Shown here piece by piece: positions 1-3,000 of a stretch of DNA of 30,715 nt; positions within the stretch are counted from its first letter, which is position 1, and each line of letters opens with the position of its first letter. The position numbers are program-made. Origin of the DNA: a virus (Duplodnaviria > Heunggongvirae > Uroviricota > Caudoviricetes); IMG/VR virus record IMGVR_UViG_2703718822_000006, one strand, 5' to 3'.

Positions 1-3000
1 ATTATGGCTTCGTATGCGTTTGAAGATTATGCCCGTAGCGCGGCGAGCAAAAAACAGTGCCCCTGCTGTCACGGAAAAAAATTTATTGAAAGCGAGGTTT
101 TTACAAACAAGATCCAGTATCCGGATGGTAAGCCGCCAGTGTGGGCAAAGTGCACAAAAGGCGTGTATCCGTCTTACTGGGAGGAATGGAAAAAAGTCAG
201 GGAGGTGGTAAAAGTTGCCTGTCCGGAGTGTGGCGGAAAGGGGGAGGTTTCCACCGCCTGTGAAGATTGTCGTGGGCGCGGTGTTGCCATTCATCGTGAA
301 GAGTCGGAAAAACAGGGTGTGCCGGTTTTCAGAAACTGCCAGCGTTGTGGTGGGCGTGGCTATGAAAGATTACCTTCAACGGAGGCATTTAATGCCATAT
401 GTAATGTAACCGATGCCATATCTCTTGATACATGGAAAAAAACAGTTAAACGTTTTTACGATACGCTGGTGGTGCAGTTTGATATTGAAGAAGCATGGGC
501 AGAACAACAACTGAAAAAGGTGACCAGATAGCTTTGTTGATTTTTCCCGAATCTGTGGTAAATTTGCCCTAACGATGGGCGTTTTATGCCTGACGTTAGA
601 AGATTTTTACACCCGTCGCCAGGCGGGTTTTTTTATGACTGAAATCACGCCAGTACAGTAAACGCGCTGGTGGCGGTGAATACCTGTCTTTCAGCTTGCT
701 GGCTTTTTTGACAAGAGTTATTGGTGTGTCACGTTAACCGGAAAAGGGAAAAAGACATGCTGAAACAGCAGGATATGACCGAAACTGCCAGAGTGGTGTT
801 TAATGAATTAAGCGTCACCGAACCGGCGACAGTCGGGGAGATTGCGCAGAATACTTACCTTTCACGCGAACGCTGCCAGTTAATACTGACCCAGCTTGTT
901 ATGGCGGGTCTGGCAGACTATCAGTGCGGTTGTTACAGACGCCTTCAGTCCTGAAGGCTTTTTATTTGTGGTGAATGGGCGGCTGGTGGGGGGGGGCGAC
1001 ACCTGTCAGTCCTTTGCTTATGTGTTGATGATAATTTACCTTTTGGGGCTATAATTGAGCTAACCAATTGCTAATGAAAGTAAAATTATAATGGCTGTTG
1101 TCTGTTCAGTTATCATGGTTTGCTCCCCAATTAATATTTTTCTTGAAAAGGATACGTTGTCACTTAAGCCAGGCTCAGTCGTTCTGGCCACCAAATGCAT
1201 CAGGGAGCTTTTCCTTATGCATTATGGCAAAGTTAAAATTGTCGATATAAGCGAATCCGTCGTAAGTCAATATCTGGAAAGTCAGCATAAGCTGACGAGG
1301 ACTCGTCTGACTGACATTCCGCTTTACCTGTTGCTGGAACCCAACAATCCTGCGTTGGCTGCGGCTTTAATTACCAGCCAGGGATTTTCCGGAGAGGCCA
1401 CGGATATGTTTCTTATGATGGCCTGCCTGTCTCTGTTTGAAACAGATGAACGGATGTCATTGTTTTTAAGTGGATGTTTATCCAGCATAAGTGTCAAAGT
1501 CAGGGCGATAATTCAGACAGATATATCAGCAAGCTGGACGCTTGGTGCGATTGCTCTACAGTTGCATATGAGTGAGAGTTTGTTAAAGACAAAACTGAAA
1601 AATGAAGGGGGCATGTTCAGTCGCTTGTTGCTGGAAGAGCGGATGCGTGTTGCTGTAAATATGTTATGTTCCCGGTATGGATATGGACAGGCTGTAGCAG
1701 AAAAATGCGGTTATTCAAGCAGGTCCTACTTTATTTCTGTATTTCACCGCTATTATGGCTTCCCGCCAGACAGATATGTATCCAGGCAAGGGCTTGATTA
1801 TTGATTTTCATCTGATTATTATTTTTTGGCTCGGCCCTTTAGCTCAGTGGTGAGAGCGAGCGACTCATAATCGCCAGGTCGCTGGTTCAAATCCAGCAAG
1901 GGCCACCATATCAGATACCGCCATTAGCTCATCGGGACAGAGCGCCAGCCTTCGAAGCTGGCTGCGCGGGGTTCGGGTCCCCGATGGCGGTCCATTATTG
2001 GTATTCAGCGTTGTTAGCTCAGCCGGACAGAGCAATTGCCTTCTAAGCAATCGGTCACTGGTCCGAATCCAGTACAACGCGCCACACCACACTTATCTGC
2101 CCTGACTCTCTTTTGCGGGCTTTTTATTACAGGAAAGACACCGGACAGTGAAATGTTAAATGCCTCACAATTCAGGCAGTTGACTGTTGCCTGACATGCT
2201 GAGCGTTTGTTAAAAAAATCCTGCATGATGAATCCCCCTGAGCGGCGGGGCATAATGACAGATGTTTGGTTGCGTATTGTATAGGCAAGTTGCGGATTCT
2301 GTCTGGTCATTGCAGAATTCACCGGGAGGCACCCGGCATCATGCTGTATACAGAGATTAGGCATATATCCAGGCTCCTCATCGCAGGAGCCTTTTTACAT
2401 GCAAAAAAAGCCCGAGTGGGTTCGGGCAACAGCATGAGATACCTGCATTGTCATTTTTATCGTGTGGATTTTAACCAGGGTTTATAAGGCTGCGCAACTG
2501 CGCGGCCTTTTTCGTTTTGCGGGCTGCGGTTCTCCTCTTTTGATTCTCCGTGTAGCCGGACCGTGGCCCGCAACTGTTGAGGAAAATCCCGGAAAGGGGA
2601 GGAATAATGGCATTTAAACACTATGACGTGGTCAGGGCGGCATCTCCGTCAGACCTTGCGGAGCGACTGACACAAAAACTGAAGGAGGGCTGGCAGCCGT
2701 TTGGCAGTCCTGTGGCTATCACTCCTTATACACTGATGCAGGCCATTGCCGCAGAGGGTGATGTGACCACGCCTGTGGTTGTGCCCGACACAGGGGCTGG
2801 TGGTTCTCCGGGTGTGGCTACCACTGAACCGGAGTATTACTACGTTATTCCCCTGGCCGGGCAGTCGAACGGTATGTCCTATGGTGAGGGGCTTCCTCTG
2901 CCGGAGACCTATGATCGCCCTGACTCCCGTATTAAGCAGCTGGCGCGTCGCAGCACTGTGACGCCGGGTGGTGATACCTGTGCATACAATGACGTTATTC

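Follow-up and report, generated by a model that had tools for sequence, protein, structure and literature searches.

The late genes of bacteriophage lambda are controlled by the antiterminator Q, the closest structurally described relative of the system examined here (PDB 4MO1, 7UBJ-7UBN). Residues 61-113 and 153-207 of lambda Q form a helix-turn-helix body, and residues 114-152 form a zinc-ribbon arm, which makes contact with the Q-binding element at positions 11-13 and, through its tip, with region 4 of sigma; residues 1-60, together with NusA, take on a new fold as a nozzle at the RNA exit (PMC9388147). We have analyzed a stretch of DNA of 30,715 nucleotides (nt) from a virus of the Caudoviricetes, IMG/VR record IMGVR_UViG_2703718822_000006, and refer to this whole stretch as “the window”. 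Its first 640 nt very likely constitute a lambdoid late-gene switch, comprising a gene of the Q-lambda family, a late promoter (pR') that contains the site for loading Q, and tR', the first terminator. The Q encoded here has a longer zinc-bearing arm than that of lambda. This long-arm module is a common, already annotated subtype of a textbook system.

The window opens inside the Q gene, whose 3' part (the last 176 codons and the stop) occupies nt 1-531 on the plus strand, as judged from the open reading frame (ORF) and from Pfam and PDB matches. The frame is uninterrupted from nt 1 to a TAG at 529-531 and ends in a conserved C-terminus (...KKVTR). Against the Pfam family PF03589, “Antitermination protein Q”, the fragment scores 103.4 bits (E = 7.5e-30; gathering cut-off, 26.7 bits), and a full-length relative scores 174.4 bits. 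The first nucleotide corresponds approximately to codon 98, the N-terminal ~97 codons lying upstream of the window. These can be read in a 99.8% identical E. coli chromosome (OkiPb01678), in which Q has 273 codons (positions 2710-3531 of the locus that we call L001) and is annotated as “antitermination protein”; in near-identical genomes, then, the upstream ORF does extend to a full Q. The N-terminal segment of about 60 residues in the OkiPb01678 protein is conserved with lambda, for example in the stretches SPKSP and TDVMAAxGM. In that chromosome, rusA and a DUF968 (ydfU-like) gene precede Q, and a small ORF, an AraC-like gene, three tRNAs and a SASA esterase follow it, as they do in the window.

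The full-length relative is considerably longer than lambda Q (273 versus 207 residues). A MAFFT alignment of the two gave 41% identity and had only one gap, of 66 residues, which falls in lambda between positions 114 and 115. A phmmer search of the PDB divided the protein in a similar way, aligning residues 1-113 and 182-273 of the query with residues 1-113 and 116-207 of 7ubm_Q (E = 1.1e-41). Further, for a full-length protein of 97% identity (P0002), the AlphaFold2 (AF2) model (mean predicted local distance difference test score 80) matched 7ubn_Q in a Foldseek search with E = 7.4e-14 and a template-modeling score of 0.68 on the target. These results bear out the first-pass annotation of this DNA, made from the sequence alone, which had aligned the C-terminus of this Q with that of lambda. 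The window protein is a Q of the lambda family with a predicted helix-turn-helix body and zinc-ribbon arm, and it resembles its lambda counterpart in family, in body fold, in the presence of the arm, in gene position and, outside the insertion, in 41% of its residues.

The gap in lambda corresponds to an insertion of 66 residues (115-180 of the full-length protein; nt 52-249, plus strand) in both the MAFFT and the phmmer alignments. Given the position of the gap and the limits of the lambda body and arm, this insertion falls exactly at the body-arm junction. It contributes two knuckles of the CxxCxGxG type, bringing the window protein to four motifs and eight cysteines; lambda Q has only two such motifs, CRDCHGTG and CGRCKGVG. 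Motif 1, CPCCHGKK (C117 and C120; nt 58-81), ends in KK rather than xG, and motif 2 is CPECGGKG (C171 and C174; nt 220-243). Motif 3, CEDCRGRG (C184 and C187; nt 259-282), aligns with lambda C118/C121, and motif 4, CQRCGGRG (C210 and C213; nt 337-360), with lambda C144/C147; all four are on the plus strand. The first-pass annotation had listed four motifs, as against the single zinc finger of lambda. All four are indeed present where it had placed them, and the pair additional to those of lambda belongs to a true insertion and not to the ordinary Q zinc finger. The eight cysteines are invariant in 55 of 55 homologues (55-92% identical to the first sequence), which were drawn from E. coli, Salmonella, Klebsiella, Enterobacter, Citrobacter, Serratia and Pantoea, among others. 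In a more distant clade of Qs, motif 3 reads CxC instead of CxxC.

In the AF2 model, motifs 1 and 2 are separated by a beta-hairpin of 12+12 residues (strands 125-136 and 159-170), and motifs 3 and 4 by a strand-helix-strand unit that resembles the lambda arm. On this model, the insertion would form a long beta-hairpin, held together by motifs 1 and 2. We conclude that motifs 1 and 2 probably form a second structural zinc site, in tandem with a lambda-like site formed by motifs 3 and 4. This pairing is inferred from the spacing and sequence of motifs 3 and 4, which follow those of lambda, from the AF2 strands, and from the alignment of the Pfam DnaJ profile. In that alignment, the two motifs of lambda, like motifs 3 and 4 of the window-type Q, fall on DnaJ motifs 2 and 3, and motifs 2, 3 and 4 of the long Q fall on DnaJ motifs 1, 2 and 3. 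In DnaJ itself the pairing is nested (1+4 and 2+3), such that motifs 2 and 3 share one zinc ion.

The same repeats admit another arrangement, with the zinc sites nested and the four motifs together making up a cysteine-rich domain of genuine DnaJ type; motifs 1+4 would then be the equivalent of the lambda finger, and motifs 2+3 would hold the insertion as a zinc hairpin inside it. Such a domain might serve in protein-protein contact, not in DNA binding. Several features are in keeping with this arrangement. Motif 1 follows a conserved helix end (RSAA), as the first motif of lambda does, and motif 4 precedes the sequence GY(E/S)R(L/M)P, as the second motif of lambda does. In anti-TRAP, a zinc ion is shared by neighboring motifs that lie 13-14 residues apart. 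Against the Pfam family PF00684 (DnaJ_CXXCXGXG), whose cut-off is 32.7 bits, the window fragment and the full-length relative fall just short, with 31.2 and 29.8 bits, respectively. However, three aligners set the lambda pair on motifs 3 and 4, which are separated by 26 residues exactly as in lambda and joined by a similar linker, and in the AF2 model the strands between motifs 1 and 2 pair with each other, as do those between motifs 3 and 4. Further, the protein matched neither a J domain nor a DnaJ C-terminal domain in the domain scans of Q. We therefore regard the nested arrangement as unlikely and favor the tandem one.

The likeness to DnaJ, which the first-pass annotation had emphasized, is one of individual motifs. 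Lambda Q, whose finger also consists of two CxxCxGxG motifs, itself has a sub-threshold match to DnaJ_CXXCXGXG (23.1 bits); the description “DnaJ-like” thus fits the knuckles of the entire family. The match of Q to TIGR02349 is only local (23 bits, against a cut-off of 377). The fusion of a DnaJ fragment to Q was also considered, and it was rejected by the domain scans. The cysteine-rich domain of DnaJ (PF00684; PDB 1EXK) and anti-TRAP are alike to the window Q in their repeated CxxCxGxG knuckles and in a weak similarity of profile and fold; unlike DnaJ, the window Q has no J domain, probably arranges its zinc sites in tandem, and embeds them in a DNA-binding antiterminator. Most relatives of this Q found in the homology search carry precomputed assignments to PF03589 and PF00684 together. 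A few long-arm Qs have been named “chaperone protein DnaJ” or “molecular chaperone” in public databases, including proteins from Serratia quinivorans (P0032) and from Klebsiella phage ST13-OXA48phi12.4 (H52), a misannotation that probably stems from the CxxCxGxG motifs.

The late promoter lies immediately downstream of Q. A -10 hexamer, TAAATT (nt 559-564, plus strand, as are all elements of this region), is identical to that of lambda pR'. Likewise identical to lambda is the sigma70-dependent pause element at 571-579, AACGAT followed by GGG (AACGATGGG), within which A571 was taken as +1 by analogy with lambda. The composite TAAATT-N6-AACGATGGG has the sequence and spacing of lambda pR' and, with up to two mismatches allowed, occurs once in the window versus 0.08 occurrences expected. 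The putative -35 hexamer, TTGATT (537-542), is located 16 base pairs (bp) 5' of the -10, in the position of TTGACT in lambda. We identify pR' by its homology to the lambda promoter and by conservation in relatives: over 40 loci, which come from many genera, have the same architecture, as does the Qin prophage of E. coli K-12. Variants of the pause element in relatives include AACAGT, AACACT and AATGAT, with A2 and T6 kept in all. Relatives show TTTACT at the -35 position, and the -35-like TTGACT, which in lambda repositions region 4 of sigma, is mostly absent.

The segment between the two hexamers is the part of the promoter that departs from lambda. This spacer, TTTCCCGAATCTGTGG (543-558), ends in TG, giving an extended -10, and its conservation in relatives makes it the candidate Q-binding element. 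It differs from the lambda spacer, TATTGAATAAAATTGGG, in sequence, in length (16 bp versus 17 bp), and in the placement of its GAAT-like core, which is 3 bp nearer to the -10. Lambda Q binds between the -35 and -10 elements (PMC9388147), and by analogy the window Q is inferred to bind at 543-558. The form TTTCC(C/G)GAA(T/A)CTGTG is conserved in relatives of many genera and accompanies Qs with CxxC at motif 3, whereas a second spacer type, AAACGTGGCGGAATTTGGC, accompanies those with CxC. The K-12 Qin spacer, TTTTTCAAAAAATATGGA, is of a third type, and that of lambda is different again. The spacer sequence, that is, tracks the Q clade; on these comparisons the Q-binding part of the qut site is subtype-specific, as expected for matched Q/qut pairs. 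The earlier suggestion of a conserved pR'/qut region consequently holds for the -10 and the pause element and does not hold for the sequence between -35 and -10.

An intrinsic terminator, tR', was located by a terminator scan and by folding at 611-634 (+41 to +64), with a stem at 611-628 and a T-run at 628-634. Its stem has 7 bp, five of them G-C, and a 4-nt loop followed by seven T residues, and it is present in the minimum-free-energy fold. From the arrangement of these parts, a leader RNA of about 64 nt (571-634) is predicted to be made from pR' to tR' when Q is absent. Both the position of the terminator, estimated in the first-pass annotation at about 40-60 nt from the start, and the very short terminated leader proposed there agree with our placement. 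Such brevity is nevertheless the norm. We compared 41 genome loci with a long-arm Q and a recognizable pause element (where this element was unusual, +1 was set by eye); the T-run ends between +53 and +67 in 36 of the 41, with a median of +61. The terminator sequences differ among these loci. Thus, the position of the terminator is kept across relatives while its sequence is replaced, and the K-12 Qin locus has the same layout.

The lambda pR'-tR' transcript, 6S RNA, is 194 nt long, a length consistent with the lambda sequence. A short leader might be thought to go with the long arm; this idea was rejected, in that short leaders also occur behind Qs identical to that of lambda. Such Qs (100% identity) often lie upstream of short leaders (e.g., at loci L064, L071 and L089), and others keep the long, lambda-type leader. 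By sequence reading, the viral contigs L064, L071, L078, L087 and L089 have a terminator some 50-60 nt past the pause element, and the terminator of L089 is nearly identical to that of long-arm loci such as L007. The scan of viral contigs with lambda Q returned only Qs of ~100% identity to lambda and so does not sample short-arm diversity. Leader length is therefore uncoupled from arm type, and late-leader modules are evidently exchanged independently of Q.

The leader RNA, taken as a 66-nt transcript, folds with -21.3 kcal/mol (z = -2.6) into a 5' stem-loop and the terminator hairpin. In the 5' stem-loop (571-597), the nucleotides AACG at +1 to +4 are predicted to pair with CGUU at +24 to +27, enclosing an inner stem of 6 bp. 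Across 41 distinct leaders, a set that includes those of lambda and K-12 Qin, an exact downstream complement of +1 to +4 (AACG/CGTT or AACA/TGTT, at +16 to +28) is present in 33, versus 4.2 expected by shuffling; because the leaders are related to one another, fewer independent events must underlie this count. Leaders of the AATG variant pair through G.U. RNAalifold found no consensus structure in the 41 leader 5' ends because MAFFT failed to align their variable loops; the complement test was applied to each sequence, against shuffles, instead. We take these results as a modest suggestion that a 5' stem-loop is conserved in pR' leader RNAs of the Q-lambda type.

These observations invite the question of whether the leader is a product in its own right. 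In Stx1 and Stx2a phages (Stx, Shiga toxin), the terminated late transcript, of 258 nt, is processed to a 74-nt small RNA (sRNA), StxS (PMC7547250). The ~64-nt RNA could similarly be a functional, trans-acting sRNA in lysogens. StxS arises in just this manner in Stx phages, albeit ones with a different Q family, and both StxS and lambda 6S RNA resemble the present leader in being constitutive late-promoter transcripts that end at the first terminator (PMC7547250). Further, the leader, with its recurrent 5' stem-loop ahead of a terminator hairpin and U-tail, has the layout typical of an Hfq-dependent sRNA, and the z-score of the fold is in accord with such a role. On the other hand, an Rfam search of nt 1-3000 (E ≤ 1) found no family for the leader, the best hit (suhB/mmgR over 559-643; 22 bits, E = 0.16) being at the level of chance; conservation is poor in the segment that separates the two hairpins; and relatives have swapped terminators. 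At ~64 nt, the leader differs in length from StxS, to which no homology turned up, in an analysis that included no direct comparison with StxS. We consider an sRNA function improbable, and continue to treat the transcript as the leader of a late-gene switch.

If this switch operates on the lambda model (PMC9388147), its course can be outlined. In the absence of Q, pR' would fire constitutively, and the polymerase would pause at about +16/17 because sigma70 would re-bind the -10-like sequence AACGAT at +1 to +6. Transcription would then terminate at +60 to +64, yielding the ~64-nt RNA. Once Q was made, its helix-turn-helix body and zinc arm would bind the spacer between -35 and -10, and Q would then contact the paused polymerase. 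The N-terminal ~60 residues of Q, encoded upstream of the window, would refold with NusA to form a nozzle in the RNA-exit channel. The polymerase so modified would read through tR', and likewise through terminators farther downstream (941-958, 2371-2392 and 2486-2509). Read-through would allow the expression of the cargo regulators, three tRNAs, a sialate esterase, and the lysis and morphogenesis genes.

With a second zinc site, the arm would be larger and stiffer, and would go with a Q-binding sequence unlike that of lambda and a spacer of 16 bp instead of 17 bp. A stronger proposal is that this unit gives a loading geometry unlike that of lambda, with the enlarged arm replacing or re-routing the contacts to region 4 of sigma and to DNA; we hold this to be a doubtful extension, and we assign the same low likelihood to the separate notion that the 5' stem-loop is a functional RNA element. 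In the Pantoea form of Q, only six residues separate motifs 1 and 2.

That nt 1-640 are of a functional type is supported by the eight invariant cysteines, by a 97% identical module located before stx2A/B in another phage, and by the presence of long-arm Qs in cultured phages. Several considerations weigh against this interpretation. The first ~97 codons of Q are outside the window, and the N-terminal part is read from a near-identical genome, not from this copy. The hairpin between motifs 1 and 2 ranges from about 6 to 55 residues across relatives; this variation counts against a conserved contact by its tip. The exact boundary of the insertion is ambiguous because the knuckles resemble one another, and it could equally be drawn after motif 1, which amounts to the nested arrangement discussed above. 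In addition, pR' was not called by a generic sigma70 promoter scan, because TTGATT and TAAATT together match only 8 of 12 consensus positions. Finally, the start site, the pause, the binding of Q and the read-through are all assigned by homology.

Alternatively, the window copy could be a decayed remnant in a cryptic prophage, with an inactive Q and a promoter and terminator that are relics. The location of the N-terminus outside the window is compatible with this view, and in the nearest genome, OkiPb01678, the neighboring rusA is frameshifted (L001 2340-2713), meaning that that prophage copy may be partly decayed. Further, the K-12 homologue QuuQ resides in Qin, a defective prophage. The window itself does not have the appearance of a relic. 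The Q frame is open to its conserved C-terminus with all eight cysteines intact, as are the promoter, pause element and terminator; some 26 kb of long ORFs on the same strand follow from about 4.6 kb onward; and the 97% identical module is carried by a Stx2a-converting phage. Decay is thus very unlikely in our estimation, and an intact switch remains the favored explanation.

Modules of this kind are widespread. A megablast search with nt 1-1100 found similar DNA in 3064 of 5426 complete E. coli genomes, at up to 99.8% identity. A tblastn search with the 273-residue Q matched 249 of 50,697 phage records, and long-arm forms, defined as single-piece matches covering at least 80% of the query, account for 131 of the 249. 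These include HK225, ES18, ST104, Fels-1, mEp460, Stx2c-converting phages, and phages of Erwinia, Yersinia and Klebsiella. Lambda, P22, HK97 and similar phages gave two-piece matches (78%). The long-arm Qs of cultured phages (HK225, ES18 gp73, ST104 gene 23, Fels-1, mEp460, Stx2c-converting phages and Stx2_EH1910 quuQ) are matched as a single piece over 100% of the query, with identities from 97% (Stx2_EH1910) down to ~32% in the most distant phage hits. In the Stx2a phage Stx2_EH1910, the 97% identical Q/pR'/tR' module is upstream of stx2A/B, and its Q gene is annotated quuQ. The cargo of that phage comprises a DNA methylase and stx2AB; at this place the window encodes an AraC-like regulator, and it lacks toxin genes.

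K-12 QuuQ/YdfT (Qin; 250 residues) likewise carries four cysteine motifs, ordered as in the window Q, and its gene lies ahead of TAAAAT-N6-AACGATGGG and of a terminator starting at about +38; in comparison with the window Q, it is more distant, has a shorter hairpin between motifs 1 and 2 and a different spacer, belongs to a defective prophage, and is annotated “putative”. Lambda Q shares the identical -10 and pause element at the same spacing. The window Q module differs from that of lambda in the additional 66 residues with their two knuckles, in the sequence and length of the -35/-10 interval with its extended -10 TG, and in a tR' at +41 to +64.

The four-motif long arm is therefore one of two main forms of Q-lambda, not an oddity, and a short pR'-tR' leader is normal for the family. 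Q and its loading site set the strength of expression of late genes and late-operon cargo after induction, including that of Shiga toxin in related phages; assigning a module to the right Q subtype thus helps to predict prophage behavior. A literature search, which two key subscription papers lay beyond, found no paper on the four-motif arm (the QuuQ/ydfT type). To our knowledge, structural studies of the Q-lambda family have all been made on lambda Q, with its short arm, and the structure of a loading complex that contains a long-arm Q would close a modest gap. As a side observation from these searches, a 572-bp contig of an Actinomadura rugatobispora assembly (NZ_JBHSON010000308.1; L058) encodes a fragment 49% identical to the window Q, most likely as contamination of the actinomycete assembly.

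Several further genes lie downstream of tR'. The first, an ORF of 65 residues (757-954, plus strand; ATG at 757), has a weak match to a TrmB-type winged helix (E = 0.002, below cut-off), and its relatives are annotated “TrmB family transcriptional regulator” or “hypothetical”; the terminator-like hairpin at 941-958 overlaps its stop. An AraC-family regulator of 237 residues (1091-1804, plus strand) follows, with YdeO (E = 3e-30) and GadX, proteins of acid resistance, as its closest relatives, below the equivalog cut-offs in both cases. It may be a Psr-type prophage regulator of enterohemorrhagic E. coli. In Stx2_EH1910, the DNA methylase holds its position.

Three tRNA genes occupy 1833-2084 (plus strand), with a CAT anticodon, Arg-TCG and Arg-TCT. 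The first was called Met by ARAGORN and tRNA-Ile in RefSeq, making it ileZ-like. In Stx phages this trio, the ileZ-argN-argO cluster, lies ahead of stx; in the window, no stx genes follow it. The sRNA STnc100 was matched in Rfam at 2194-2402 (plus strand) with 176.7 bits (gathering score, 47), and a match resembling the anti-sRNAs AgvB and AsxR at 2403-2462 (minus strand) is under threshold for both (AgvB, 53.1 versus 56 bits; AsxR, 45.3 versus 63). Terminator-like hairpins are present in this region at 2371-2392, at 2427-2410 on the minus strand, and at 2486-2509. The next ORF, of 663 residues (2577-4568, plus strand; TTG start), in which DUF1737, SASA (sialate O-acetylesterase) and DUF6645 domains are recognized, encodes an esterase of the NanS-p type, like those encoded downstream of stx in Stx phages, where they are named yjhS or 9-O-acetyl-N-acetylneuraminic acid deacetylase.

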